From positions 129,159 to 193,158 of the forward strand of contig JAHBXZ010000005.1 of assembly GCA_019636215.1 (NCBI GenBank): 64,000 nt of DNA, in the 5' to 3' direction. Source of the DNA: Planctomycetota bacterium. GTDB lineage: Bacteria > Planctomycetota > UBA8742 > UBA2392. Shown here one piece after another: positions 1,341 through 55,037 of this stretch; the stretch's first letter is position 1, and every line of letters starts with the position of its first letter. The position numbers and the translations under genes are program-made. The notes under the pieces are model-generated. The model saw only the letters and a list, made by a program, of their open reading frames with translations, ran no database searches and was not told the origin of the DNA.

Positions 1341-4300
1341 CTATCGGGCGCGACGCACCCTCATGACCACGGCCAGTGCTGCCATCAGGGCCAGCAGCGC
1401 CAGCCAGTGTGTGGTGCCGGACTCCGCCGCGCAGCCACCACCGCCGCCGCCACCGCCACCGCCGCCGCCGGACGACGGGGCGTTGATCACGATGGAAACA
1501 ACCGTGTCTTCAAACACCGGGTTGGCCGACGAATCCGTGACACGAACCGTGAAGCTGAACGGGCCGTCCACGGTAGGAGTACCGCTGACTGTGCCGATCG
1601 GGCTCAACGTCATGCCCAGTGGAGTCGCCCCGCCCACAACCGCAAAGGTATAGGGCCCGACACCGCCGCTGACGTTCAGGTTGACTGCCGTGTACGCAAA
1701 CCCGCGCAGTCCCGGCGGCAGTGTCGCGTTGGTAATGACCGGCAGGCCCGCAGCCGGGGCGGACACAATGATCGAGAACAACTGGCTCGAGCTTGCGTTC
1801 AGCGAATCCGTGCCGGTAACCGTAAAGTTGAACGTGCCCGGCGCCGCCGCAACCACGCCGCTTACCACGCCGGCCGTGCTCATGGTCAGGCCGTTGGGCA
1901 AGGTGCCCGAGGTAACCGCCAGGGTCACCGCGCCGGTGCCGCCCGCGGTGACAATCGTGGCGCCGGGGTAGGTAGTGTTCTGGGTGGCACCGGTGAGTGT
2001 GCTGCCGGTGGTGAAGGACACGGCCGGGGCAACTGCGATGGAAATGCGGATGTCCACGTCATTGGTGCCATCGGTGATCGTGACTTCCCAGACCTGAGTG
2101 CCGGCGTCGGCGGCTACAAGGGTTCCGTTGGGGAACACCTCCAGCATCGCACCCGCAACCACGGCGAAGCTGAAGCCGACGCCGGTGGAAGGCCCGCTGA
2201 TCAGGGTCGGGCTGCCGGTCAGGGCCACGGTCTGGCTGGTGTTCGGGTCACTGACTGCCGCAATGTCGCGGCTGATGGACATGCCCAGGCCGACGGTGTA
2301 GGCCGTGAGGTACGGGGTGGCCACAGAGCCGTCGCCGCTGATACCGGTGGCCGGCGCGTGAACCGGCGGGACATCGCCGATCACAATGATCACATCCACC
2401 GTGATCGGGTTGCCGGTGCCGGAATCTTCAAAGGTCACCTGCCAGATGTAGCTGCCGACAGGGTTGGTTGCATCGGCCACGCCGGTCCAGCTGAGTGTCA
2501 GCGGCTGGCCCGGTGTCGGGATCGTCGGCGCGGTGATGCCCGTGGGGACAACCGCCGGCGGGACTATCGCCGTTACCGTGATGGTGTCGCCTTCGGGGTC
2601 TGTCAGGTCAATGTCCGCGTTGGCCAGTGTGGCGCCCGGAACAACCGACTGCGTGAACGGCCCGTTCACGCCGCCGGTGAACGACGACCCGGTTGGCGCC
2701 GTGGCCTCGGCCTCGCCGTTGGGCACGTAACCTGTGCCCGAGGCAAAGAAGGTGTAGGTGCCCTCGTTGAAGTCATTGTTGAGGATAGTGATGGTGAAGG
2801 TGAATCCGCCGAGCTGTGGCGCGACATTGACCGTGAAGGTCGTGCTGTTGCCCTGCGTAACGGTGTTGCCGGGCTGGGCAGTGACATTCACCGTGGGTGC
2901 ACCCGAACCAGGCGTGACGGAAATCGGCGTGGTGATGGTCAGGTCGCCGGGGCCGGTGTTGAGAATTGTCCAGGTGAAGTTCATGCCCGTGGTGGGCACG
3001 TTGCCAAGCGCATCGGTGGTGCCGACGGCGATGCTGACGCCGGTGGTGCGTTCGACGTCGATCTCAGGCTGGGGCACGGCCGCGCGCTCATCGGCACCGG
3101 AATCGCGCTCGGCGCCGATCGGGCGGGTCTGGCCGTCAATGTCAATGTTGACGGTCGAGCCAACCGCCAGGTCAATCGCAGGCGAAATGCCCTGCAGGTG
3201 CAGGTCTTCACTGCCGCTTGTGGTGCTGACCAACAACGGGTCGGTGTTCAGGCCGTTGACGTCACGGCCCGATGCCTGCCACTCGGTCCAGGTATCAAAG
3301 TTTGTGTTGTTGCACATGACGGCAGCGCCCGCCAGGTACACGACGTTGCGGTCGACCGTCGTGGGCAGCGCCGTGCCGGTGGCGCTTTCCAGGCGATAGA
3401 AGGGTATTGCGCTGGAACTGGCGAGGTACACGACATTGAACGAGATGTTGGATATGGGGTTTGTATCGCCGTTAGTGTTGAACACGGCCCCGGTGGCCTG
3501 CCCGTTGGTGTGCACGATGCTGTTATGCTGGATCACAACGTTGCTGCCCGGCCGGCGCACGGCGATGACTCCTTTGATGCCACCAAAGAAGACTGTGGCG
3601 CCGCCGTCGCCGCCGCAGTTCCAAATCATGTTGTTGCGGATGGCCAGATTGTTCGGCCCGTTGCCGCTGCTCAATCCGTACGTCGCAATGGCCGCACCCA
3701 GGGCGATGTCATAAATCTTGCAGCCCTGGATCGTGACGTTCGAGGTGGCCACATTGTTGTAGAAGGCGATTCCGAAGTGCTGCCCGCCCGTAATAGTGAG
3801 ACCTGAAATGGTGACGTTACCCATGTGCGAGAAGCTCAAGGTGCCGGTTCCGGCGTTAGTGTAACCCTCGCCAGCGCCTGAACCGTTGATGACCGGGATC
3901 TCGCCCGATGCGGCCCGAATCGTGATCGTGTTGACTGCGCTGACACCGGGCACGTCGTCAACGACGGTCCCGTCTCCGCCAAGCTGATAGGAGGCCGTCG
4001 AGGTGAACGGGCCGCCGTCGTCGTACAGCTCAATGATCACCGGGCCGGTGACGCCCACGGTCTCCAGGGCGTCAAACACCGCGCCAAGGTCACCGAAGTC
4101 AAATGCGCCACCCGGGTTGCCGTTGGCCACTGTGTAGGTGCCGTTGAAGGGCGGCTCGGCGATGTTGAAGGTCACCGTAAAGTTGCCCGGCGTGTTGACG
4201 CCATCCGACACAACCACCGTGTAGCTGAAGCTGCCCGAAGACGTCGGTGTGCCGGTCCAGGTCAGGTTGTGCGGAACCGCCACGCCGCTCTGTGTGGCCG

Positions 4301-7300
4301 GGGCAGTCACACCCGGCACCGGCGAAACCGGCGTTACGGTGATGTCCACCGTGCCACCCGAAGCGTCATTGGCAACCAGCACCGCGTTGGCCAATGCTGT
4401 GCCGCGCAGGCCCGAGTAAACCCGCGACGCATTGAAGCCCGAACCCGTGCCCGGAACCAGCGTAGGCGCCGGGTTGGTTGCCGTGATGGTGACTGTGAAG
4501 TTGGCAGTGTTGGTGCCGTCAAACAACGAAACCGTGTAGGTGAAACTGCCAGAGGCACTGGGCGTGCCTGTCCAGGACAGGTTGGCCGGAACAGCAACAC
4601 CAGTCTGGCTGGAAGGCGCCGTCACACCGGGGGCCGGATTAGTCGGGGTGATGGTGATGTTGATGGTCGAGTCGTTGATGTCATTGGCCACCAGTACCGC
4701 GTTGGAAAGGGCAACGCCCTCAACGGCGGTGTACACGCGGCTGGCGTTGAAGCCCGAGCCCGTGGCCGGAACCAGCGTCGGCGCGGGGTTGGAGATATTG
4801 AAGGTCACTATGAAGCTGGGGCTGCTCACGCCGTCGCTGACCACCACCGTATAGGTGAAGCTGCCCACCGCGGACGGCGTACCCGTCCAGGTCAGGTTGT
4901 GCGGCACGGCGATACTGCCCTGGCTGGACGGTGCCGTAACGCCGGGCACCGGGTTGGTCGGGGTAACGGTGATGCTGACGTTCGGGTCGTTCACGTCATT
5001 GGCCGTCAGCAACGCGTTGGCCAAGGCCACACCCATCATGCCGGTGTAGACGCGCGAGGCGTTGAACGCCGAGCCTGTGCCCGGCACCAGCGTGGGCGCA
5101 GGGTTGGTCACGTTGATCGTGACGGCGAAGTTCGGGCTGTTGATGCCGTCACTCAAGGTGACGTCGTAAGTGAATGTGCCAACCGACGTCGGCGTACCTG
5201 TCCAGGCCAGGTTGGCCGGTACCGCCGCCGAACCCTGACTTGCCGGTGCCGTGACACCTGGGGCGGGGCTGATCGGCACCACGGTGATGGAGATGTTGGG
5301 GTTGTTCGAATCCCCGGCAACCAATGTGGCCGTCGTAATGGCTACGTTCAACGGCAGGGAAATCACGCGGCTGGCGTTGAAACCCGATCCCGTGGCCGGC
5401 ACCAGCGTAGGCGCCGGGTTCAGCAGGCTGATGGCAACGCCATTGACCGGGAACGTACCCTCAATCGGGCCGGGGTTGGCCGTTACATCGCCAGAGGCCG
5501 CCACCTGGAAGCGAACCGTGCCCAGCGACGCGCTGGCCGCGATCTGCGCTGTCAGGAAGAACCGCGCACCCTGGTTCTGCGCGGTGAACTGCCCCAGCGG
5601 AGCGCCACTGAAGGTAACCGTACCGCCGGAAAGCGCGCCCACGGTGCTGCCAAGCTGGGTGTCGGCGCCGTCGAACTGGCCGTTGCCGTTGCTGTCCAGC
5701 CACAGTTTCAGGTTGCCGTACGACGAGTTGCCCGTGGTGCCGATGTGCGTGAGCGTCACGCTGTTGACGGCCTGGATGGACTGCACCGACATCGCGTCAA
5801 AGGTGCTGACCCACTGGTCGGTGCTCAGGGCGCTGGTCACGTTGGCCGGGCCGGCGCTGCTGGCCGCCAGGTATAGACCTACGCTCCAGTTGGCCTCGTG
5901 CGCACCGATGTCCACCGACGAGCCCTGGGGACGGGTGGTGCCGAAGAAGTCAATCGTGGCCGAAGATGTCTGCACCGCCGGGTCGATGCATGGCGAAGAC
6001 GGGGCCAGACGCAGGTCAAACGGCGCCGCGGTGCTCAGCAGCTGCGGGTTGGCGTTGCTGCCGTTGACGTCCAGGCCCAGGCCCTGCCATGTAGAGAACG
6101 GGGTGCGGGTGGCCTGGTTGCAGTGCGTGGCCGCAAACCAATAGTTGAAGTTGGCCGTCGTCGGCGTGGAAACCGTAGAGTTCAGGAAGATAGCCGGGAT
6201 TGCGGCGCTGGTGCAGACCACAATGTTGTTGCTGACGTCATGCAGCGCATAGGTTGTGCTGCTGGAGTACGCATAGATGCCGCCGGTGCCGGTCAGTGTG
6301 CTGGTGTGTACCACGGTGTTGTGCCGCACCACGCTGCTGCCCTGCGCGGCGTTGCGAATCGTGATCGCGCCGTTGGTCAGCGTCTGAAGCTGTGGCGAGG
6401 TCGCGATGCCCGCCGTCAGGCAGTTGTAGACAAAGTTGTGCTCGACCAGGAAGTTCGTGGCGTAGCCGCTGTTCAGGCCCATGTGGGCAATGCCGGGGCC
6501 GTTGGGAATGTCGTACACCTTGCAGCGACGGATGGTGATGTTGGTGGTGTTCAGCAGGATCGGCGAAATGTTGTTGCCCTGGGCCATGATGCCGAAGTGC
6601 GGGCCGCCGTACACTTCCAGCCCTTCGACGGTCACATAGGACTGATTGATGACCAGGCCGCCACGGCCGGTCTGGGCCGTCGTGGTGGCAGAAGGTGCCA
6701 GGATGGCGCCGTTGGCGTTGCCCTGGATCTTGGGGTTCTGGCCGGTGGCCGCGCGCAGGGTGATCGTGTTGGTGGCGGAAGCGCCGGCCACGGGGGTGAT
6801 GGCCGGAATCGGCACGGCACTGGAAATGCCCAGGCTGTACGACGGGTCGGAAACGTAGGTCGCGCTGTCCGTGATCTCCAGGACAACCGGGCCGGCCACG
6901 CCGGCTGTTTCCAGAGCGTCAAAGGCCGCGCCGATCGACGCAAAGTCGCCCGACGTCTGGTTGATGGTATAGGTGCCGGACATGGCGCGTGCGCCGGTGA
7001 TCGTCACCAGGTACGGGTTCTCGTTGCCGGTCGTGTCGCTGTTGGCAATGGCCACCGTCACACTGAATGGCCCGGTGCCGGGGATCGTGATATCGACCGT
7101 GAACGTCGCGTTCGAAAGCGGCGCCACCGGCGAAGCCGGGGTCAAAGATCCATAAGAAACGCTGCAGTTCGTCGGAGTTCCCTGGGTGGAAATGCCCGTT
7201 ACGTCCAGCGCATTGGCGTTCCCGAGGTTCTGAACTTCCAGTGTAACCTGAGTGGTTGCGCTGACCTGCCCCACCGAAGTGGTGCTGCCTGACATCACGG

Positions 7301-45880: not shown

Positions 45881-45967
45881 GCGCGGGTGGCGGAATTGGC
45901 AGACGCGCTAGCTTGAGGTGCTAGAGCCTTCACCGGCGTGCGGGTTCAAGTCCCGCCCCGCGCACCA
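45881..45967 (+). tRNA. tRNA-Leu (anticodon GAG), class II with a long variable arm
   Basis: Acceptor stem gcgcggg/cccgcgc, U8. Anticodon stem ctagc/gctag with loop ttGAGgt. T-arm gcggg-ttcaagt-cccgc. Discriminator A, then an encoded CCA. Confidence 0.9.
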
Positions 45968-46041: not shown

Positions 46042-46182
46042 GACGAAATGCGGCTTTGGGTTTCTGGAAACTGCCGCCGCGCCCTGTCGTGGTCGTTCCC
46101 CAAAACCCGTAACCCAAAACCCGCAACCGCTGTTGCTCTGCATTCGCAATTTTTTTGCGCGCGCAGTAATCGCGCCTTGCCG

Positions 46183-46413: not shown

Positions 46414-47859
46414 ATGAGCGAGCTCAAGCTTCACCCGGACAAGTACGGCATCGACGACGTGATCGCCTTTGCCAAAGATCGCGGCTGCACCATGCTCGAC
46501 ATCCGCTTTATGGACCTGCCGGGCCTCTGGCAGCACTACACCTTCCCGATTCGCCGCCTGACCAAGGATTGCTTCGAGGAAGGCTTTGCCTTTGACGGCA
46601 GCAGCCTGCGGGGCTGGAAAACCATCAACGAATCCGACATGACGGCCATGCCCGACCCCACCACGGCCTTCATTGACCCGTTCATGAAGGAGCCCACGCT
46701 GGTGCTGATTGCCAACATCGTGGACCCGATTGAGCGCACACCCTACCCGCGCGACCCGCGCAACATCGCCAAGCGCGTGGAAAGCTACCTGAAGTCCACT
46801 GGCATCGGCGACACCATCTACTTCGGCCCCGAGGCCGAGTTCTTTATTTTTGACAACGTGCGGTTCAGCACCGGCATCAACCACGGCTTCTATCACCTGG
46901 ACAGCCAGGAAGGCGCCTGGAACACCGGCCGCGAGGAAGAGGGCGGCAACCTGGCCTACAAGCCGCGCGTCAAGGGCGGCTATTTCCCGGTGCCGCCGAT
47001 GGACAGCCTGCACGACATCCGCACCGAGATGCTGCTGACACTCGGCCGGCTGGGTATGACGCCTGAGTTGCATCACCACGAAGTTGCCACCGGCGGCCAG
47101 TGCGAGCTCAGCATCAAGTACGACACGCTGGTGCGCGCGGCCGACAACCTGATGATCTACAAGTACGTGGTCAAAAACATCGCGCGCAAGCACGGCAAGA
47201 CGGCCACGTTCATGCCCAAGCCCCTGTTTGGCGACAACGGCAGCGGCATGCACGTGCACAGCAGCATCTGGAAAGGCGGCAAGAACCAGTACGCCGGCGA
47301 TGGCTACGCGGGCTTGAGCCAGACTGCAGTCTTTGCAATAGGCGGCATCTTGAAACATGCCCACGCCCTGTGCGCGATCACCAATCCCACCACCAACAGC
47401 TATCACCGCCTGGTGCCGGGCTACGAGGCCCCGGTCAACCTCGCCTACAGTTCGCGCAACCGCAGCGCCTGCGTGCGTATTCCGCTTTCGGGCGACAGCC
47501 CCGCCGCCAAGCGCTTTGAGTACCGCATTCCGGACCCCAGCAGCAACCCCTACCTGGCCTTTGCGGCTGTGGCGATGGCGGCGCTGGACGGCATCCAAAG
47601 CAAGATCGACCCGGGCAAGCCGATGGACAAGGACCTCTATGATCTGGAACCCGAGGAATTGAAGGACATCCCGCAGGCACCGGGCAGCCTCGAACAATCA
47701 CTGAAGTCGCTGGAAAAGGACAACGCCTTCTTGCTCAAGGGCGACGTGTTCAGCGCCGACGTGGTCGGCGAGTGGATCAACTACAAGATGAAGAACGAGG
47801 TCGACGCCATGCGTTTCCGGCCTCACCCGCACGAGTTTGAGCTGTATTTTGATATCTAG
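46414..47859 (+). CDS. glnA: Glutamine synthetase type I
   Basis: [19 protein letters not shown] start. Diagnostic GS-I regions, including ...GSGMHVHSS.... 481 aa. The longest ORF runs to 46048. Confidence 0.9.
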
Positions 47860-47869
47860 TTGGAACAGC

Positions 47870-47939
47870 GTGTCTGGTGTCTGGTGTCTGGTGTCGCGTG
47901 TCTGGTGTAGCCAGACACAAGCCACTGGACACCAGACAC
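47870..47939. repeat. Five tandem GTGTCTG heptamers followed by their inverted complements; a compound hairpin, likely a bidirectional terminator, between convergent glnA and the methyltransferase gene
   Basis: gtgtctg gtgtctg gtgtctg gtgtcgc gtgtctg gtgtag CCAGACAC aagccactg GACACCAGACAC. Confidence 0.7.
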
Positions 47940-47943
47940 TGTT

Positions 47944-49005
47944 CTAACCCGCGAACATCGCTGCTTGCTTGGGCCGGGCATCTGGCGCGAAGTCGAACTC
48001 CTGGGGCGTGACCACGTACAGGAACTCTTTGTTGTGCAGGTGGCTGACCTTGCCCACCTTTTCACCCTGAGGGTTGTAGATGCCGATCTGCGCGCCCACG
48101 TAACGCTTGAAGTCGTGCGTCAACGTAACCACCTTGCCCCGCGCGCCCAGCACGGCTTCGGCGTCGGCCTGGCTCAGAAAGCCCTCATTGTTGAAGCTGA
48201 CGATCAGGTACTTGGCCTTGACGGCGGCGATCATGGCCTTGAACGCGGCCAGAAACTTCGGGCGCGAGTTGAACTGGCTCTTGCGCTGCCGCACATCCAC
48301 GCGCTTGCAGGCCGTGCCGTACACTTCGGGCTTGTCCCAGCGCACCAGCGATTCCCAGATGTGGTAGTTGGCCAGGTACGAATGCTGGTTGTAGGGCGGG
48401 TCAATGTAGGCCACGTCCACGGGCGTTTGCGCAGCTTCGAGAGCGTCGAGACAAGTGGCGTTACCTTTGCCATGGCGGGCGCGGGGCAGCACGTTGGGCA
48501 TACGCAGCTCGATGTCATTATAGGCCCGTGGTGCCCATCCCTTTAGATAGGCCATTTGCAGGCCGGTGGTGCTGTCCACGCGGTCGGCGGCTTCCATCAG
48601 GCTGACCAGCAGCACGGCCTTGAGTTCCGGCGGCAGTAACTTGGCTTCGATGGCATCGCGGATGGCATCAACCCGGGCGCCGTTCTTGGGCTGAAAGAAG
48701 CGCGAGTCTTCGCAGAAGGTCTTAGTGAAGTAGCCGGGCTTGCCCGGCATGGCGTTGAACTCTGCAATCAGTTTCTCGGCATCGGGGCGCACGTCTTCAA
48801 GATCGGCCTGAACATAACAGGTCGCCAAAGTGTGGGCATAGGCGTTGTGATCGTTGGCAGCCACGCGATAGCCGGCAGCCTTCAGCGCATGGCCCACACG
48901 GGACGTGCCCGAGAACAGGTCAAGCACAGACGTCGCGGGCAGTGATGCCACCACGTCAACGATGGCGCCAAGCAGCGTGCGTTTCGACCCGATGTACTTG
49001 ATCAC
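47944..49005 (-). CDS. N6-adenine-specific DNA methyltransferase, D12/Dam-like class; an orphan with no adjacent restriction gene
   Basis: N-terminal YIGSKRTLL, motif I DLFSGTSRVG, and the catalytic DPPY at ...VAYIDPPYNQHSY. Confidence 0.75.
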   Translation of the reverse strand: MIKYIGSKRTLLGAIVDVVASLPATSVLDLFSGTSRVGHALKAAGYRVAANDHNAYAHTLATCYVQADLEDVRPDAEKLIAEFNAMPGKPGYFTKTFCEDSRFFQPKNGARVDAIRDAIEAKLLPPELKAVLLVSLMEAADRVDSTTGLQMAYLKGWAPRAYNDIELRMPNVLPRARHGKGNATCLDALEAAQTPVDVAYIDPPYNQHSYLANYHIWESLVRWDKPEVYGTACKRVDVRQRKSQFNSRPKFLAAFKAMIAAVKAKYLIVSFNNEGFLSQADAEAVLGARGKVVTLTHDFKRYVGAQIGIYNPQGEKVGKVSHLHNKEFLYVVTPQEFDFAPDARPKQAAMFAG

Positions 49006-49031
49006 GGGGATAGTCTAGCGGCGAGGACGAT

Positions 49032-49113
49032 AGTCGGGAGTCTGAAGTCGGCAGTCGGCAGCAACGGCACAAGCGCGGTTTCTGCTGACTGCTGACTCCC
49101 GACTGCCGACTCG
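49032..49113. promoter_or_regulatory. Dense direct and inverted GTCGG(G/C)AGTC-type repeats in the divergent intergenic region between the methyltransferase and the amidoligase operon
   Basis: AGTCGGGAGTC at 49032-49042 and GTCGGCAGTCGGCAG at 49047-49061 on one side. GACTCCCGACT at 49094-49104 and CCGACTGCCGAC at 49099-49110 on the other. The second arm is flanked by ctgctgactgctgact. Confidence 0.45.
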
Positions 49114-49130
49114 AAAACTATCATCCCCCC

Positions 49131-49853
49131 ATGCCCGTTCTTGACCTGCATATCCAGGCCCAGCCCGATGACCGGTCCTGCGGCGTCACCTGCCTGAATG
49201 CGTTGTATGGCTACTACGGCAAGGATGTGCCGCTGCCGCAACTGGCGCTTGAAGTCGAACACCTGGAATCCGGCGGCACCCTGGCCGTGATGCTGGGCTG
49301 CGACGCGCTGCGCCGGGGCTTCAAGGCCAAGATCTACACGTACAACCTGCAACTGTTCGACCCGACCTGGTTTCAGGACGCCAAGATCAACATCGCCCAC
49401 AAGCTCCTGCGCCAGGAGAACTTCAAAGACGACCCACGCCTGAAAGTGGCCACACGCCGCTACGTGGAGTTTCTTGACCTGGGCGGCCGGGTGCGCTTTG
49501 AAGAAATGAACGCCAAGCTGATCCGCAAGTACCTCAAGCGCGGCAAGCCGATCCTGGTCGGCCTGAGCTCCACGTACCTGTACCAGACGGCACGCGAGTA
49601 CGGCCCCTTTGACGACTACGACGACGTGCGCGGCGAGCCCCAGGGCCACTTTGTTGTGCTGTGCGGCTATGACCGCGACGCCAAGACCGTGCGCGTGGCC
49701 GACCCGCTGCTGCAAAACCCCATGACCGGCGGCAGCCAGTACTACGATGTCTCCATGGACCGCTTGATTGCAGCGATTCTGCTGGGCATTGTCACCTATG
49801 ACGCGAACCTGCTGCTGATCGAACCAAGAACCCCGGACCAACCGGCTGCATGA
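49131..49853 (+). CDS. Papain-fold cysteine peptidase/acyltransferase-like protein (C39-like / BtrH-N-like)
   Basis: Gln and Cys in QAQPDDRSCGVTCLNALYGYYG, then His in GHFVVLCGYD, in the order seen in C39-type peptidases. First gene of the ATGA-coupled operon. Confidence 0.55.
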   Translation: MPVLDLHIQAQPDDRSCGVTCLNALYGYYGKDVPLPQLALEVEHLESGGTLAVMLGCDALRRGFKAKIYTYNLQLFDPTWFQDAKINIAHKLLRQENFKDDPRLKVATRRYVEFLDLGGRVRFEEMNAKLIRKYLKRGKPILVGLSSTYLYQTAREYGPFDDYDDVRGEPQGHFVVLCGYDRDAKTVRVADPLLQNPMTGGSQYYDVSMDRLIAAILLGIVTYDANLLLIEPRTPDQPAA

Positions 49854-51319
49854 CAACCCTGATCGTCGTCAACAATCCTTCCCGCTGGCCACTGGAGATC
49901 CCCGACGTCCAGGTGGTATCGGCCAAGGCTTACCTGACGGACCCCGAGTACAGCAAACTGCAGGGCATCAAGGTCTTCAACCTGTGCCGGTACTACAGCT
50001 ACCAGAGCCTGGGCTATTACGTCAGCCTGCTTGCCGAGGCGCGCGGGCACCGGCCCCTGCCGGACATCGCCACAACGATGAACCTGCGCACGCTTTCCAT
50101 GCCGCGGCCCATGGCCAACGAGCTCGATGAAGAAATGCAGAAGGCCCTGGCGCCGCTGAAGTCGCCCGAGTTTGACCTGAGCATCTACTTCGGCCGCAAC
50201 ATGGCCAACCGCTACGAGAAGCTGGCCCTGCAGATTTTCAATCAGTTCCCCTCCCCGTTCCTGCGCGCACACTTCAAACGCGGCGAAGAAGGCTGGGAGA
50301 TGGCCAGCGTCACGACGATCAGCCTGAACGATGTGCCCGAGAGCCACCGGCCCTTCATCGTCGAAAGCGCGATCCAGTACCTTGCCCGCAAGCGCCACTC
50401 GCGCCCGCGCCGCTCGCGTGGCCGCTTTGACGTGGCAATCCTTTTCGACCGCGAAGAGAAACACTCGCCCAGTGACCCGCGCGCGATCAAGCGTTTCTGT
50501 GATGCGGCCTACGACCTTGGCATCAACACCGAAATCATCGACAAGAACGATTACGGCCGCATTGCCGAGTTTGACGGCCTGTGGATCCGCGAGACCACCA
50601 GCGTCAACCATCACACCTATCGCTTTGCCCGGCGCGCCCAGAACCTGGGCCTGTGCGTGATTGACGACCCGCGCAGCATCCTGCGCTGCACCAACAAGGT
50701 GTACCTGGCCGAACTTCTGAACCGCCACAACCTGAAGGGCCCGCGCACGTTGATTGTGCATGAGGACAACATTGACGAAGTGGGCCGCACTCTAGGCCTG
50801 CCTTGTGTCTTGAAACGGCCCGACGGCGCGTTCAGCCAGGGCGTGATGAAGGCCGCCGATGAGGGCGAATTGCGCCGCACAATCGAACTGATGCTGCAGG
50901 ACTCCGACCTGCTGATCGCCCAGGAGTTCGTGCCCACCGAGTACGACTGGCGCGTGGGTGTGCTGGACCGCCGGCCGCTGTTTGTCTGCCGCTATCACAT
51001 GGCGCGCCAGCACTGGCAGATCGCCAAGCACGGCGAAGGCGCAACCCAGTTCGGCGAAGTAGACAGCATCCCCGTCGAAGAAGCCCCTCCCGAAGTCGTC
51101 AAGGCGGCCGTGAAGGCCGCCAACCTGATCGGCGACGGCCTGTACGGCGTTGACCTGAAGCTGATCGGCGACGAACCCTACATCATTGAAGTCAACGACA
51201 ACCCCAACCTTGAGGCCGGCACAGAAGACGCCGTGCTCAAGGAAGAACTCTGGCGCAGGCTGGCGGGCGTGTTCCTTCGCCGCATTGAGGCCGGGCCGCA
51301 CGGCGCGGGGTCGGCATGA
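49850..51319 (+). CDS. RimK-type ATP-grasp amidoligase with an N-terminal RLAN (RimK-like ATP-grasp N-terminal) domain
   Basis: C-terminal ATP-grasp ...LPCVLKRPDGAFSQGV...LIAQEFVPTEYDWRVGVLD...YGVDLKLIGDEPYIIEVNDNPNLE. An N-terminal domain of about 250 aa. ATGA overlaps on both sides. Confidence 0.8.
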   Translation: MTTLIVVNNPSRWPLEIPDVQVVSAKAYLTDPEYSKLQGIKVFNLCRYYSYQSLGYYVSLLAEARGHRPLPDIATTMNLRTLSMPRPMANELDEEMQKALAPLKSPEFDLSIYFGRNMANRYEKLALQIFNQFPSPFLRAHFKRGEEGWEMASVTTISLNDVPESHRPFIVESAIQYLARKRHSRPRRSRGRFDVAILFDREEKHSPSDPRAIKRFCDAAYDLGINTEIIDKNDYGRIAEFDGLWIRETTSVNHHTYRFARRAQNLGLCVIDDPRSILRCTNKVYLAELLNRHNLKGPRTLIVHEDNIDEVGRTLGLPCVLKRPDGAFSQGVMKAADEGELRRTIELMLQDSDLLIAQEFVPTEYDWRVGVLDRRPLFVCRYHMARQHWQIAKHGEGATQFGEVDSIPVEEAPPEVVKAAVKAANLIGDGLYGVDLKLIGDEPYIIEVNDNPNLEAGTEDAVLKEELWRRLAGVFLRRIEAGPHGAGSA

Positions 51320-52536
51320 CCCTGCACTTGTTTGAGGGCTACGGGATTGAGCTGGAGTACATGATTGCCGACAAGGCCACGCTTGCGGCCCGGCCGATCA
51401 GCGACCTTCTGCTGCGCGAAGTGGCAGGCAACGATGAAGGCGACTTCGACAACGGGGACGCGGCCTGGTCGAACGAACTGGTGCTGCATGTCCTGGAGTT
51501 CAAGACCAACGGCCCCGCGGCGGATCTGACAAAGCTGCCGGCGTTGTTTGCGGCACAGGTAACGCAGGTCAACGGATTGCTGGCCAAGCACAATGCCATG
51601 CTGCTGCCCGGCGCGATGCACCCGTTCTTTGACCCGATGACCGAGACGAAGCTGTGGCCGCACAGCAACAACGTCGTCTATGAGACCTACAACCGCATCT
51701 TTGATTGCCGCGGCCATGGCTGGTCCAACCTGCAAAGCACGCACCTGAACCTGCCCTTTGCCGACGACGCCGAGTTCGCGCGCCTGCACGCGGCCATCCG
51801 CATGATTCTGCCGATTCTGCCCGCGCTTTCGGCGGGCTCGCCCGTGGCCGACGGCAGTCTGCAGCCGGCGCTGGACTACCGGCTGGTGAAGTATTCCACC
51901 AACTCGGCGCGCATTCCCAGCGCCACCGGCAAGGTCGTACCAGAGCCCGTGTACACCAAAGACGCCTACTACCGCGAGATTTTGCAACGCATCTGGAACG
52001 ACACGGCGCCCTTTGACCCCGACGGAAATCTCGAGGGCGAGTACGCCAACGCGCGCGGGGCGATTGCCCGCTTTGACCGCATGGCAATCGAGATTCGCGT
52101 GCTGGACATCCAGGAGTGCCCCAGCGCCGACATCGCAATCTGCGCCCTGATTGCCGAAACGCTCAAGGCACTGATCGACGGCCTTGCAAGGCCGATTGAC
52201 GACCTGAAACCCTGGGCCGTGGATCCGCTGGCGGCCCTGTTTCGCGAGTGCATGGTCAGCGCCGAGGGCACGGTAATCCGTGACGCCGACTACCTGCGCG
52301 CGTTGGGCTTAACCGGCGCAAGCGCCACAGCGGGCGAAATCTGGCGCAGCCTTCGCGAGCGCGTGATGCCCAAGGGTTCACCTTTTGCGCCAGCGCTGGA
52401 CGTGATTCTGGATCACGGCACACTGGCCTCGCGGCTGAAACGCGCGCTGGGGCCCGACCCGGGACACGACAAGATCGCCGCGACGTGGCGAGAACTCGCG
52501 GCCTGCCTGGCAGCCAACCGGCAGTTCACGCCATGA
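51316..52536 (+). CDS. GCS2-family carboxylate-amine ligase (YbdK-like gamma-glutamyl ligase fold)
   Basis: N-terminal LHLFEGYGIELEYMIAD, the E-x-E motif of glutamate-cysteine ligase family 2. 406 aa. Confidence 0.8.
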   Translation: MTLHLFEGYGIELEYMIADKATLAARPISDLLLREVAGNDEGDFDNGDAAWSNELVLHVLEFKTNGPAADLTKLPALFAAQVTQVNGLLAKHNAMLLPGAMHPFFDPMTETKLWPHSNNVVYETYNRIFDCRGHGWSNLQSTHLNLPFADDAEFARLHAAIRMILPILPALSAGSPVADGSLQPALDYRLVKYSTNSARIPSATGKVVPEPVYTKDAYYREILQRIWNDTAPFDPDGNLEGEYANARGAIARFDRMAIEIRVLDIQECPSADIAICALIAETLKALIDGLARPIDDLKPWAVDPLAALFRECMVSAEGTVIRDADYLRALGLTGASATAGEIWRSLRERVMPKGSPFAPALDVILDHGTLASRLKRALGPDPGHDKIAATWRELAACLAANRQFTP

Positions 52537-53240
52537 CCTTTGACGCCTTCCTCATCACCTGTGAACACGCCAGCAACGCTGTGCCCGTGCGCTGGCGCGA
52601 GCCTTTTGCCGACACGACGCAGGTGCTGGAGTCCCACCGCGCCTGGGACCCCGGCGCGCTTGTACTGGCTGGCGAGTTCGCACGCCTGCTCGATGCCCCC
52701 CTGTTCAAGGGCCAGGTCACGCGACTGCTGGTCGATCTCAACCGGCGCGAAACCGGCAAGGGCGTGCTGAGTGATTACTCGCGTCAGTTCGACCTTGAAA
52801 AGCGCGTGGCATTGCTGAACCTTTACCACCGGCCCTATCGCGTTGCCGTACTCGATGCTGTCACGGACCGTATCCGCGCCGGGCGCAAACTGCTGCACCT
52901 TTCGTGCCACAGTTTCACGCCGGTGCTGGACGGCCAGACGCGCACGGCCGAGATCGGCCTGCTGTTCGACCCGCGACGCAAGCCTGAAAACGCGCTGTGC
53001 AAGGCCTGGCGCAAGGCCATGGCTGCGGCCCTGCCGAAGCACCGCATCAAGCTGAACTACCCGTACAAGGGCACAAGCGACGGCATGACTACCTGGTTGC
53101 GCGAGCAGTTCCCGGCCACACGCTACGCGGGCATTGAGATCGAGCTCAACCAGAGCTTCGCCATGCAGCCGGCGGCCCGTTGGGCCGACGTGCGACAGGC
53201 CTTGAAGTCAACCCTGCGCGCCTGCCTGCGTTCCGGGTGA
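52533..53240 (+). CDS. N-formylglutamate amidohydrolase (FGase) family hydrolase
   Basis: MTFDAFLITCEHASNAVP, the FGase CEHA-type motif. ATGA overlap with the GCS2 gene. Confidence 0.8.
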   Translation: MTFDAFLITCEHASNAVPVRWREPFADTTQVLESHRAWDPGALVLAGEFARLLDAPLFKGQVTRLLVDLNRRETGKGVLSDYSRQFDLEKRVALLNLYHRPYRVAVLDAVTDRIRAGRKLLHLSCHSFTPVLDGQTRTAEIGLLFDPRRKPENALCKAWRKAMAAALPKHRIKLNYPYKGTSDGMTTWLREQFPATRYAGIEIELNQSFAMQPAARWADVRQALKSTLRACLRSG

Positions 53241-53327
53241 ACTTGGTGGGCAATGCAGTCACTGGCCCCGACGTTGTCGCACCGCCCGATATCCTGTAAC
53301 TTGGGCCCCTTGGCCCGCGGAGCATCC

Positions 53328-55037
53328 ATGCGACTCGTCATTGCCATCGCCCTGCTTGTTGCCGTTGCCGTTTCGACCATCGCGCAGGATGCGCCTCAAC
53401 CCACCGCGCGCGAGGCACTGCTCGCGCAAGTTGGCAAGACCTGGCTGAAAGACGTCAAACCGGAAGACCGCGCCGCGCGGATCGAGTTTCTGGAGATCCC
53501 GCAATCCATCCGCGAGCACATCGTCGCCAACGAGTGGGAGAAGGCCCAGCTGGAACGCTTCACCAAGGACCGCGCTTACGCCCTGGTCGCAGCGCCAGAC
53601 GGCGATTACGCGATTCACTTTCGCGGCCCACACCAGCGCAGCACCCGCAAGCTTGATGCCGCCCGCGCCCGCATTCTGCGACGGCTGTACAACGATGCCG
53701 CCTTTGCCGCGCCATGCGCGCCGGAACTGGAAGCGTGGCTCAAGGCTGAAGTCGACGTGCAGGCCGTGTTCTCGGACGCCGTCGCCCGGGCCTGCGACGA
53801 CGTGAAGTTTCGCCCCGATGGCGACACCCTGCGCCGCGCCCGAGTCAACTTGCTGGCGGAGGGCACCAGCCGTGAAGCCATCGCGCGCGCATTGGGTGCG
53901 CTGGCAAAGGTGGACCACGCGCCCGAGTGCTGCTGGGCCGCAATCTGGCTGATCTCGCGCATGGATTTGATGACCTTCCACCGCGAAAAGGGCGAAGGCT
54001 CAGTCAACGACCTCGTCGCCATGGACGCGCGCTGCTTCTTTGAGAACGTGTGGTACGCCGTAAAGGCCCGCCACGACTTTGCCTGGGGCTGCGAAGTGCC
54101 GGACAAGGACTTCCTCAACTATGTGCTGTCGCCGCGTGGCACCGGCGAACCGCTGCAGCGCTGGCGCAGGCACTTCTACGAGGCACTCGCGCCCGAGCTT
54201 GTCGGCAAGACCCGCGACGAGGCCATCAACCTTGCCACCACGGTGGTCTACGACTTCTACCAGTATGAAGGCGACACAACCTGGGAAGACTTCGGCATGC
54301 TGACTGCGCTGGCCGTCCACGAAGGCCGCTGCGAGGATTGCAGCAACGTCGAGTGCTGCATGCTGCGCGCGGTCTGCATCCCCGGCGCGCAGGCCTTTAC
54401 CCCCTGGTGGGGACATGGCGACGGCAACCACGCCTGGACCTGGATTCCAAGCTTCGGCAAAGGTTCCGGTGACGGCGCGGGCGCGGTGAAAGTGTACACC
54501 AAGACATGGGACGGCCTGGACGACGTGACCGACCAGAACACACCCGTTACGCGCTTTGAGTGCGATGCCCCGGCCGATGCAACCGAAAAGCTGCAACTGC
54601 TGGTCTGGAACCACGACGAGTGGCGGCTGGTGGCACGCGCCATGCCCGCCAACGGCAAGGCCGTGTTCGAGAAAGTGGGCAACCGCAAGCACTTCGCACT
54701 GCTGGTGCGCACACCCGGCGGCAAAGACCGCATGGTTGTGCTTGGCCCGAAGTCCGAGCCGCGCTGGCTGAACAATGCCGAGAAGGTCGAAGGCGGCGCG
54801 GACTTCACCTTCGAGAAGCAAAGCCCGCTGGGCGAGTTCCAGCCTGACAGGCAGTACCAGATGCAGGTGTGGACCACCGCCGGCTGGCAAGATCTGGCCA
54901 GCGAGCGAGTATCCACCGGCGCGCTGAAGTTCAAGGCCGCCCAGGACCGCCTGTATCGCCTCAAGGCCGAGGGCATCAACGGTCGGCCCTTCACGATCGA
55001 GGAAATCGACGGCGAGTTTGCCGCGCGCGTGCGGTAA
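53328..55037 (+). CDS. Secreted transglutaminase-like (papain-fold) domain protein
   Basis: Signal peptide MRLVIAIALLVAVAVSTIAQ. Transglutaminase core GRCEDCSNVECCMLRAVCIPGAQAFTPWWGHGDGNHAWTWIP, a Cys...His...Asp-type arrangement. Confidence 0.7.
   Translation: MRLVIAIALLVAVAVSTIAQDAPQPTAREALLAQVGKTWLKDVKPEDRAARIEFLEIPQSIREHIVANEWEKAQLERFTKDRAYALVAAPDGDYAIHFRGPHQRSTRKLDAARARILRRLYNDAAFAAPCAPELEAWLKAEVDVQAVFSDAVARACDDVKFRPDGDTLRRARVNLLAEGTSREAIARALGALAKVDHAPECCWAAIWLISRMDLMTFHREKGEGSVNDLVAMDARCFFENVWYAVKARHDFAWGCEVPDKDFLNYVLSPRGTGEPLQRWRRHFYEALAPELVGKTRDEAINLATTVVYDFYQYEGDTTWEDFGMLTALAVHEGRCEDCSNVECCMLRAVCIPGAQAFTPWWGHGDGNHAWTWIPSFGKGSGDGAGAVKVYTKTWDGLDDVTDQNTPVTRFECDAPADATEKLQLLVWNHDEWRLVARAMPANGKAVFEKVGNRKHFALLVRTPGGKDRMVVLGPKSEPRWLNNAEKVEGGADFTFEKQSPLGEFQPDRQYQMQVWTTAGWQDLASERVSTGALKFKAAQDRLYRLKAEGINGRPFTIEEIDGEFAARVR

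Follow-up and report, generated by a model that had tools for sequence, protein, structure and literature searches.

The four genes at positions 49,131 to 53,240 of the window, by which we mean the whole 64,000-nucleotide stretch of DNA analyzed, form one translationally coupled operon. The operon is real, and it encodes two ATP-dependent amide-bond ligases and two amide-cleaving enzymes. The four genes appear as same-strand ORFs in the ORF list of the window (Table 1), and, as the sequence-only reading had claimed, they are joined by ATGA start/stop overlaps, which can be read in the sequence at 49850-49853, 51316-51319 and 52533-52536. For the last ORF an alternative GTG lies upstream at 52485, and the ATG at 52533 was taken as the start since homologues begin at the equivalent position in the alignment. 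The profile searches that the same reading had proposed for each ORF place all four proteins above the curated Pfam cut-offs (whole-protein bits against cut-off throughout), as papain-fold Peptidase_C39_2, RLAN plus RimK-type ATP-grasp, GCS2 and FGase, and the predicted catalytic residues are invariant in the family alignments of all four. Given significant family matches for all four ORFs and recurrence across phyla, the block lies far beyond chance.

Table 1. Features of the operon and its upstream flank (window coordinates).
Feature	Position	Strand	Remarks
glnA	46414-47859		TIGR00653, 662 bits
D12 adenine methyltransferase	47944-49005	-	profile match
Divergent intergenic region upstream of operon	49006-49130	.	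125 nt; nearly all taken up, at 49032-49111, by (AGTCGGC)n heptamers that form an imperfect hairpin
Cytoplasmic C39-like (papain-fold) cysteine peptidase	49131-49853	+	240 aa; predicted catalytic Q11, C17, H173, D191
RLAN domain fused to RimK/LysX-clade ATP-grasp ligase	49850-51319	+	489 aa; RLAN ~25-172, ATP-grasp ~196-489
Divergent GCS2-family (glutamate-cysteine-ligase-like) carboxylate-amine ligase	51316-52536	+	406 aa; Pfam GCS2
FGase-family (N-formylglutamate-amidohydrolase-like) metallo-amidohydrolase	52533-53240	+	235 aa; frequent accessory gene of the block

The four enzymes

No signal peptide was found in the four proteins, each of which appears to be cytoplasmic. None of them reaches the NCBIfam cut-offs for RimK, YbdK/GshA or HutG, so that they constitute four separate orthologous groups. 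The peptidase matches Peptidase_C39_2 (PF13529, 44.5 bits against 24) and Peptidase_C39 (PF03412, 33.4 against 22), and combines a papain-like fold with the Gln/Cys/His/Asp catalytic set. It had been described as C39/BtrH-N-like; the C39 half of this description holds by Pfam match and catalytic set, whereas the other half does not, as the protein neither matches the profile of the BtrH_N papain-like acyltransferases (PF14399) nor finds its closest structural similarity there. Its nearest structural relatives are leader-peptide proteases with ribosomal-peptide substrates. The classical C39 setting, with a fused or adjacent ABC exporter and a double-glycine-leader precursor, is absent: the peptidase stands alone, and neither partner is co-conserved in 80 loci.

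In the second protein an RLAN domain (PF14401, 156 bits against 25, 6.9e-46, residues 25-172) lies N-terminal to a RimK-type ATP-grasp domain, which matches RimK (PF08443, 36.9 against 21, 3.8e-9, residues 282-456) and ATP-grasp_3 (38.4 against 23.2, 1.8e-9). The family profile aligns with RimK (7qyr/4iwx) and LysX across residues 239-456, and K322, E359, D435, E447 and N449 are invariant in the alignment. The top NCBIfam matches are rimK_fam, LysX and MptN, each under its cut-off, and place the ATP-grasp domain in the RimK clade, not the graspetide clade. The protein is nevertheless not RimK proper, scoring 28.6 bits against 331 for PRK10446 (S6--L-glutamate ligase) and 69.7 against 143.4 for TIGR00768. 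In a paralogous architecture a RimI-like GNAT domain is fused to the RLAN-ATP-grasp; had this paralogue been Ngg, from the NAGGN osmolyte pathway, it would have supplied a characterized relative, but the identification was rejected, as TIGR03103 gives 32.9 bits against a cut-off of 569, through the GNAT part only.

The third protein matches GCS2 (PF04107) over residues 10-285 (82.6 bits against 21, 4.2e-23) and falls below the cut-offs of both the YbdK subfamily (TIGR02050, 35.1 against 176.4) and cyanobacterial-type GshA (TIGR02048, 17.1 against 249). A comparison of its family profile with the PDB returned no YbdK structure and only marginal plant GCL matches. In 22 orthologues E12, E14, N53, E54, H58, E61, H134, R247, R252, R255, E259 and R261 are invariant, and the active site would be made up of E12, E14, E54, E61, H58, R247, R252, R255, E259 and R261. 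The last protein matches FGase (PF05013) with 89.2 bits against 28.9 (5.6e-25), and its family profile matches Atu2144 (2odf) at 1e-35. Its invariant residues in the alignment, H12, D39, R64, H126 and E204, contain the His/Asp/His/Glu set of the family. It lies far below the HutG deformylase equivalog (TIGR02017, 21.6 against 278.75), and no hut genes were found around the operon in the window or in related loci.

Conservation of the block and its surroundings

The block is strongly co-conserved, as the gene-neighborhood analysis suggested by the sequence-only reading brought out. Among the 66 related loci long enough to test, which come from more than 12 phyla, the order peptidase, RLAN-ATP-grasp, GCS2 is kept in 59, and in 44 of the 66, all of them among those 59, the FGase gene follows directly 3' of GCS2. 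At least 586 loci were confirmed by scanning genomes, and a search with the ATP-grasp protein gave at least 8000 clusters at 90% identity. Carriers are spread over more than a dozen phyla at a cross-phylum identity of about 50%; a Planctomycetota MAG in GenBank (L001) has an orthologue that shares 93% identity with the one in the window. Among cultured carriers, Thiobacillus thioparus DSM 505 and Pontibacter ruber have all four genes and Blastopirellula marina has three. When the ORFs of 80 loci were clustered all against all, the further conserved neighbors were generic families only (kinases, ABC ATPases and RND pumps, in at most 10 loci each) and a GATase_4 gene, which lies near the block in 4 loci. 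No co-conserved transporter or regulator was found across related loci, nor, in loci with the block, any conserved precursor ORF of 18-110 aa within 1.2 kb on either side. The small-ORF clusters beside the block were rejected as precursors, since they shadow the N-terminal part of the peptidase in alternate frames or in antisense. Likewise, an apparent peptidase-GCS2 fusion cluster proved to be an artefact of alternate-frame ORFs strung into chains. In one locus (L057) the RLAN-ATP-grasp gene is preceded by a coupled ORF of 242 aa, which is not a divergent peptidase (hhalign probability 0.3%).

What immediately surrounds the block in the window is lineage-specific; this holds for glnA, the methyltransferase and the gene downstream as well as for the repeat hairpin. 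The operon does follow glnA, which had been put forward as a possible supplier of glutamate or glutamine, but glnA adjoins the block in only three related genomes, and for all three of these neighboring genes a functional tie to the operon was rejected, the linkage being absent beyond one or two close relatives. The divergent arrangement with the methyltransferase across a repeat-laden region is likewise as described earlier. The hairpin consists of inverted repeats (I4 and I8) in period-7 arrays, and its RNA fold has -60.8 kcal/mol (z -6.1). It is not conserved in L001, however, and the intergenic region is probably no conserved regulatory element, contrary to the control role it had been given. 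No sigma-70-like promoter was found between 49006 and 49130, and an Rfam search upstream of the operon returned no riboswitch or known RNA family there, its matches being limited to a tRNA at 45881-45964 and, on the hairpin, a miRNA-like one that is spurious. A defence system was also considered and rejected: PADLOC has no match for the four proteins, and the neighboring methyltransferase alone matches (MTase_II).

A candidate pathway and its rivals

The view of these genes as a build-then-trim amidoligase operon is supported. As the leading candidate, if somewhat short of an even bet, we propose a cytoplasmic, glutathione-style two-step ligation whose product, oligoglutamate or a small peptide with Glu in it, would then be trimmed or recycled by the C39-like peptidase and the FGase. 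The analysis shows gene structure, family membership, intact catalytic residues, cytoplasmic location and tight co-conservation; the steps and substrates of this four-enzyme pathway we infer. Overall, assembly would be non-ribosomal and would follow the logic of glutathione synthesis, GshA and then GshB. First, the GCS2-type ligase would use ATP to activate a carboxylate, for which the gamma-carboxylate of Glu is the likeliest candidate, and would couple it to an amine to make a gamma-glutamyl-X primer. Secondly, the RLAN-RimK-clade ATP-grasp would add one or more L-Glu-type residues to the terminal carboxylate; we base this assignment on the activity common to RimK, MptN, CofF and LysX, which to our knowledge are all the characterized relatives and all add such residues there. 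This would result in a tripeptide or an oligopeptide, perhaps a chain of oligo-alpha-glutamate. Finally, the cysteine peptidase may cut or transfer the peptide internally and the FGase-type amidohydrolase may free a terminal Glu by breaking an acyl-Glu bond, the kind of bond that N-formyl-Glu has, so that both hydrolases together would process, size-limit or recycle the product.

This proposal should be interpreted with some caution. Since all four proteins stay below the NCBIfam cut-offs of the characterized enzymes, transfer of specificity from relatives is weak. Moreover, several observations count against a small-peptide product: the peptidase's closest structural relatives act on ribosomal peptides, RimK itself modifies a protein, adding poly-alpha-Glu to the C-terminus of S6, the GNAT domain fused to RLAN-ATP-grasp resembles another protein-modifying enzyme, RimI, and no transporter or regulator that would hint at a role is co-conserved. 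The main rival, a lesser but real possibility, is reversible glutamylation or tagging of a protein or peptide encoded elsewhere, with the logic of RimK/RimB or PafA/Dop. The RLAN-ATP-grasp would put Glu on the C-terminus of a conserved cellular protein, GCS2 would use a Glu carboxylate to form an isopeptide or amide, and the peptidase and FGase would remove the tail or tag and free terminal Glu. Against it stand the absence of a co-conserved tag, carrier or target gene in related loci, the low score for the S6-glutamate ligase equivalog (28.6 bits against 331), and the fact that small molecules are the substrates of those FGase, GATase_4 and GCS2 relatives whose function is known. By analogy with pupylation and tubulin polyglutamylation, the block could even represent a widespread bacterial system of reversible tagging or glutamylation, not recognized so far, in which RLAN-RimK-type and GCS2-type writers, with a C39-like isopeptidase and an FGase-type deglutamylase as erasers, would act on a conserved housekeeping protein encoded elsewhere; we consider this unlikely.

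A catabolic or salvage route appears more improbable still. GCS2 might gamma-glutamylate an amine or amino acid, as the Puu pathway does putrescine, or the hydrolases might degrade imported or stored peptides while the ligases re-use Glu. It fits this idea that two of the four enzymes are hydrolases, that FGase relatives are catabolic (HutG is an enzyme of histidine degradation), that GS-fold ligases gamma-glutamylate amines in catabolism, and that the operon lies downstream of glnA in the lineage of the window. However, none of the oxidoreductase, aminotransferase, transporter and regulator expected of a catabolic operon is co-conserved, the glnA linkage is confined to three related genomes, and two ATP-consuming ligases are hard to square with pure degradation. 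Finally, a RiPP-type cassette, in which the ligases modify a ribosomal precursor with a double-glycine leader and the C39 protease releases it, is very improbable and was rejected: fold and catalytic residues of the peptidase are those of C39 and graspetides are matured by ATP-grasp ligases, but loci with the block have no conserved small ORF within 1.2 kb on either side, there is no fused or adjacent ABC transporter and no signal peptide, the ATP-grasp belongs to the RimK and not the graspetide clade, and about 50% cross-phylum identity is atypical of RiPP enzymes.

Related systems and significance

In neighborhoods of RLAN-containing RimK-like ATP-grasps, a protein with RLAN (PF14401) and a RimK-type ATP-grasp occurs together with a GCS2/COG2170-type ligase and with peptidase or amidohydrolase genes. 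The type reportedly goes back to Iyer, Abhiman, Burroughs and Aravind (Mol Biosyst 2009). The same combination is found here, with peptidase and GCS2 genes in 59 of 66 loci and FGase also in 44, and the GNAT-fused variant of the Pfam description was detected as well. We see no essential difference, and the operon in the window is one more orthologue. It is thus another case of a neighborhood type already predicted by comparative genomics, an orphan pathway that is worthwhile and not surprising. The earlier statement that such neighborhoods had been predicted only computationally, with no established product, agrees with our full-text literature search, which found no experimental paper on such a block.

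Among characterized systems, glutathione biosynthesis (GshA and GshB, with phytochelatin-synthase-like or EgtC-type trimming) differs in that the operon's ligases fall below the GshA, YbdK and GshB cut-offs and in having no counterpart to RLAN. In Pseudomonas rimABK the gene of a RimK-clade alpha-L-glutamate-type ATP-grasp also adjoins that of a protease, RimB, that could trim the additions; RimB, however, is retropepsin-like whereas the partner here is a C39-like cysteine peptidase, and the operon has the RLAN domain and the GCS2 ligase in addition. Gss, the glutathionylspermidine synthetase/amidase, holds an amide ligase and a CHAP amidase in one protein. It is similar in directing an ATP-dependent amide ligase and a papain-superfamily cysteine amidase at the same Glu-peptide amide, in a regulated build-and-cleave cycle, but its activities are fused and its amidase is of CHAP type, whereas the operon has separate genes and a C39-like peptidase. 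PafA/Dop pupylation likewise works through a Glu carboxylate and pairs a GS-fold carboxylate-amine ligase with an enzyme dedicated to amide cleavage; GCS2 belongs to another family than PafA/Dop, though, and no Pup-like tag or proteasome genes lie near the operon.

The block is among the more widespread enzyme operons without a known product. Discovery of that product would reveal either a new low-molecular-weight Glu-peptide in bacterial metabolism or a new reversible protein modification, and would give a function to RLAN, a Pfam domain, as well as to members of the C39, GCS2 and FGase families on divergent branches. The instance in the window contributes its membership and nothing further. 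The block is directly testable in cultured carriers, which include Blastopirellula marina DSM 3645, Thiobacillus thioparus DSM 505, Aromatoleum anaerobium, Pontibacter ruber and Novipirellula rosea.

Layout and co-inheritance of the block

The sequence-only reading had described four same-strand ORFs coupled through short overlaps, and both the raw sequence and an ORF scan bear this out. Since ATGA is present at 49850, 51316 and 52533, stop and start codons overlap at all three junctions, which is the classical layout for translational coupling. The FGase ORF also has an upstream GTG at 52485; in the alignment, orthologue starts match the position of the ATG.

Features in and around the operon (window coordinates)
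Feature	Position	Strand	Size	Remark
Tandem repeat	4416-5258		315-nt unit	2.7 copies, 71% match
tRNA gene	45881-45964	+		Rfam RF00005, 56 bits
Period-7 array, CCCAAAA-type	46099-46128			shorter array, upstream of glnA
glnA	46414-47859			TIGR00653, 662 bits
Period-7 array, (GTGTCTG)n	47870-47941			after glnA; heptamer hairpin
D12-class adenine methyltransferase	47944-49005	-		PADLOC Type II MTase model PDLC03298, 2e-151
(AGTCGGC)n hairpin	49010-49130			repeats at 49032-49111; -60.8 kcal/mol, z -6.1
Peptidase ORF (ORF 1)	49131-49853	+	240 aa	
RLAN-ATP-grasp ORF (ORF 2)	49850-51319	+	489 aa	
GCS2 ORF (ORF 3)	51316-52536	+	406 aa	
FGase ORF (ORF 4)	52533-53240	+	235 aa	counted from ATG 52533
Downstream gene	53253-55037		~570 aa	directly after FGase; probable start ATG 53328

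A scan of one genome per GTDB species, with the RLAN-ATP-grasp alignment as query, gave at least 586 confirmed loci. Because the best-scoring 80 of these were kept, the following fractions (tblastn with the window proteins, plus Pfam checks on divergent cases) describe the close orthologue group. The peptidase lies directly upstream of RLAN-ATP-grasp in 72 of 78 testable loci, GCS2 directly downstream in 66 of 73, and FGase directly after GCS2 in 44 of 66. The three-gene core is found in 59/66 testable loci and all four genes in 44/66, so the block clearly recurs in other genomes. HSP-to-HSP gaps in related loci are 20-39 nt, and median identities to the window proteins are 54% (peptidase), 53% (ATP-grasp), 48% (GCS2) and 43% (FGase). 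The nearest relative among the loci listed, L001 from a GenBank Planctomycetota MAG, is 93% identical. Carriers belong to the Planctomycetota, Gamma- and Betaproteobacteria, Myxococcota, Desulfobacterota, Acidobacteriota, Bacteroidota, Verrucomicrobiota, Nitrospirota, Nitrospinota, Spirochaetota, Fibrobacterota, Sumerlaeota and Omnitrophota. The operon encodes four enzymes whose genes are inherited as a unit.

RLAN is a Pfam family named after the RLAN-ATP-grasp fusion. A search with this region returned only 790 clusters at E <= 1e-3 from 1.84 billion representatives, and the family is therefore compact and highly conserved. The search also brought to light a second architecture, which places a RimI-like GNAT N-terminal to RLAN and a RimK-type ATP-grasp (proteins P0323, 646 aa; P0345, 663 aa; P0307; P0375); this paralogue was rejected as Ngg of the NAGGN osmolyte pathway, TIGR03103 scoring far below cut-off. 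In Nitrosomonas, Gallionella and one gammaproteobacterial MAG, RLAN-ATP-grasp stands alone or with other neighbours, and three loci (L057, a Gallionella MAG; L051, Nitrosomonas sp. Nm166; L066) carry it without peptidase and GCS2 neighbours. At L057 it overlaps the end of a 242-aa upstream ORF (locus positions 445-1173) that has no Pfam match and does not resemble the peptidase (hhalign probability 0.3%).

Family assignment and predicted active sites

All four ORFs score above the Pfam gathering scores: ORF 1 for Peptidase_C39_2 (44.5 bits vs 24) and Peptidase_C39 (33.4 vs 22), ORF 2 for RLAN (residues 25-172, 156 vs 25), RimK (36.9 vs 21) and ATP-grasp_3 (38.4 vs 23.2), ORF 3 for GCS2 (82.6 vs 21) and ORF 4 for FGase (89.2 vs 28.9). 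The folds proposed earlier were thereby recovered, whereas no operon protein attains the NCBIfam cut-off of any characterised enzyme (rimK_fam, 69.7 bits vs 143.4; S6--Glu ligase, 28.6 vs 331; LysX, 61.3 vs 275.6; YbdK subfamily, 35.1 vs 176.4; HutG, 21.6 vs 278.75). Judged by these profile scores, the proteins are true members of their four superfamilies and orthologous groups of their own, distinct from RimK, YbdK/GshA and HutG.

The peptidase is C39-like and not BtrH-N-like. The GCS2 protein is divergent: its family profile found no YbdK structure in the PDB, giving marginal matches to plant glutamate-cysteine ligase only. The FGase profile hits 2odf, the structure of uncharacterised Atu2144, at 1e-35, and the ATP-grasp domain aligns with RimK (7qyr, 4iwx) and LysX across residues 239-456. 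Invariant residues in ATP-grasp (K322, E359, D435, E447 and N449 in 23 sequences), GCS2 (an acidic/basic cluster of E12, E14, E54, E61, H58, R247, R252, R255, E259 and R261) and FGase (H12, D39, H126, E204) would, by analogy with their families, form the active sites; predicted catalytic residues are intact in all four enzymes.

Neither signal peptides nor membrane segments were found in the four enzymes. In the peptidase, a hydrophobic stretch (212-230) forms a core helix and strand in the confident structure model and is no membrane segment. The peptidase is a stand-alone protein; an apparent cluster link suggesting a peptidase-GCS2 fusion was an alternate-frame artefact.

Proposed function and rival readings

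To our knowledge, all characterised ATP-grasp relatives (RimK, MptN, CofF, LysX) attach an L-Glu-type amino acid, using a terminal carboxylate as the acceptor or as the point of linkage. In GCS2 relatives, the new bond links an amine with a carboxylate of Glu. Relatives of FGase free Glu by hydrolysing acyl-Glu amides, and those of GATase_4, EgtC among them, take off gamma-Glu. The simplest combination, which we infer from these relatives and hold tentatively, is a glutathione-style two-step ligation whose product would be a small peptide containing Glu or an oligo-glutamate built on a primer. Trimming, size limitation or recycling of this product would fall to the C39-like peptidase together with the hydrolase, FGase or GATase_4. 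Such a system would work similarly to GshA/GshB with phytochelatin-synthase-like or EgtC-type trimming, and its pairing of ligase and hydrolase resembles RimK/RimB, Gss synthetase/amidase and PafA/Dop, but the operon tests as a member of none of these.

In the main rival, which we consider somewhat less likely, the operon would reversibly glutamylate or tag a conserved protein whose gene lies elsewhere. Four observations speak for it: the C39 fold has peptide-protease character, protein C-termini are substrates of RimK and LysX, a paralogue with a RimI-like GNAT exists, and the enzymes are highly conserved across phyla. A catabolic role seems improbable. A RiPP cassette is most improbable, since no locus has a conserved small ORF within 1.2 kb of the block, the only small-ORF clusters recovered came from alternate reading frames over the conserved N-terminus of the peptidase, and ABC exporter association is absent. 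PADLOC gave no defence-system match for the four proteins.

Iyer et al. reportedly described the RLAN domain in 2009, together with its links to peptidases and COG2170/GCS2 ligases. Full-text literature searches turned up no experimental study of the operon. The window copy is a further instance of an already known, computationally predicted, functionally orphan operon type, and its presence will not surprise a specialist. Being widespread, with cultured carriers, the operon is a reasonable discovery target.

Neighbouring genes and intergenic repeats

The flanking glnA and opposite-strand methyltransferase are as first described. Among the best-scoring 80 of at least 586 loci, glnA adjoins the block in L001 and a second locus (L002) only, the methyltransferase in L001 only, and the downstream gene (594 aa as an ORF) in 0/80; none of the three is part of the system. 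No restriction endonuclease gene adjoins the methyltransferase, which lies between glnA and the operon. The downstream protein carries a signal peptide, MRLVIAIALLVAVAVSTIAQ, at its N-terminus, and its transglutaminase-core match stays just below threshold (22 bits vs 23).

When all ORFs in the 80 loci were clustered, no further family occurred close to the block in more than ~10 loci, and the recurrent neighbours were of generic kinds (kinases, ABC ATPases, RND pumps). Only GATase_4, a class-II-glutamine-amidotransferase-like amidohydrolase beside the block in four loci (L004, L009, L010, L033), is informative as an accessory gene. At L010 (locus positions 3757-4545) it holds the usual FGase position, and may represent functional displacement.

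The “repeat-laden control region” proposed earlier is indeed rich in repeats, the 125-nt spacer between methyltransferase and operon being almost filled by the (AGTCGGC)n heptamer hairpin. Heptamer hairpins are absent from the matching L001 spacers, and the operon's upstream region yielded no Rfam family and no sigma-70-type promoter. We regard this hairpin as a lineage-specific intergenic repeat rather than an element that controls the system. The (GTGTCTG)n and (AGTCGGC)n arrays form long imperfect hairpins, and repeat units differ among the three period-7 sites; the hairpins look like a lineage-specific family, possibly terminators or REP-like elements. A tRNA gene lies upstream of glnA, and the 315-nt tandem repeat is presumably a repeated domain within a large ORF.
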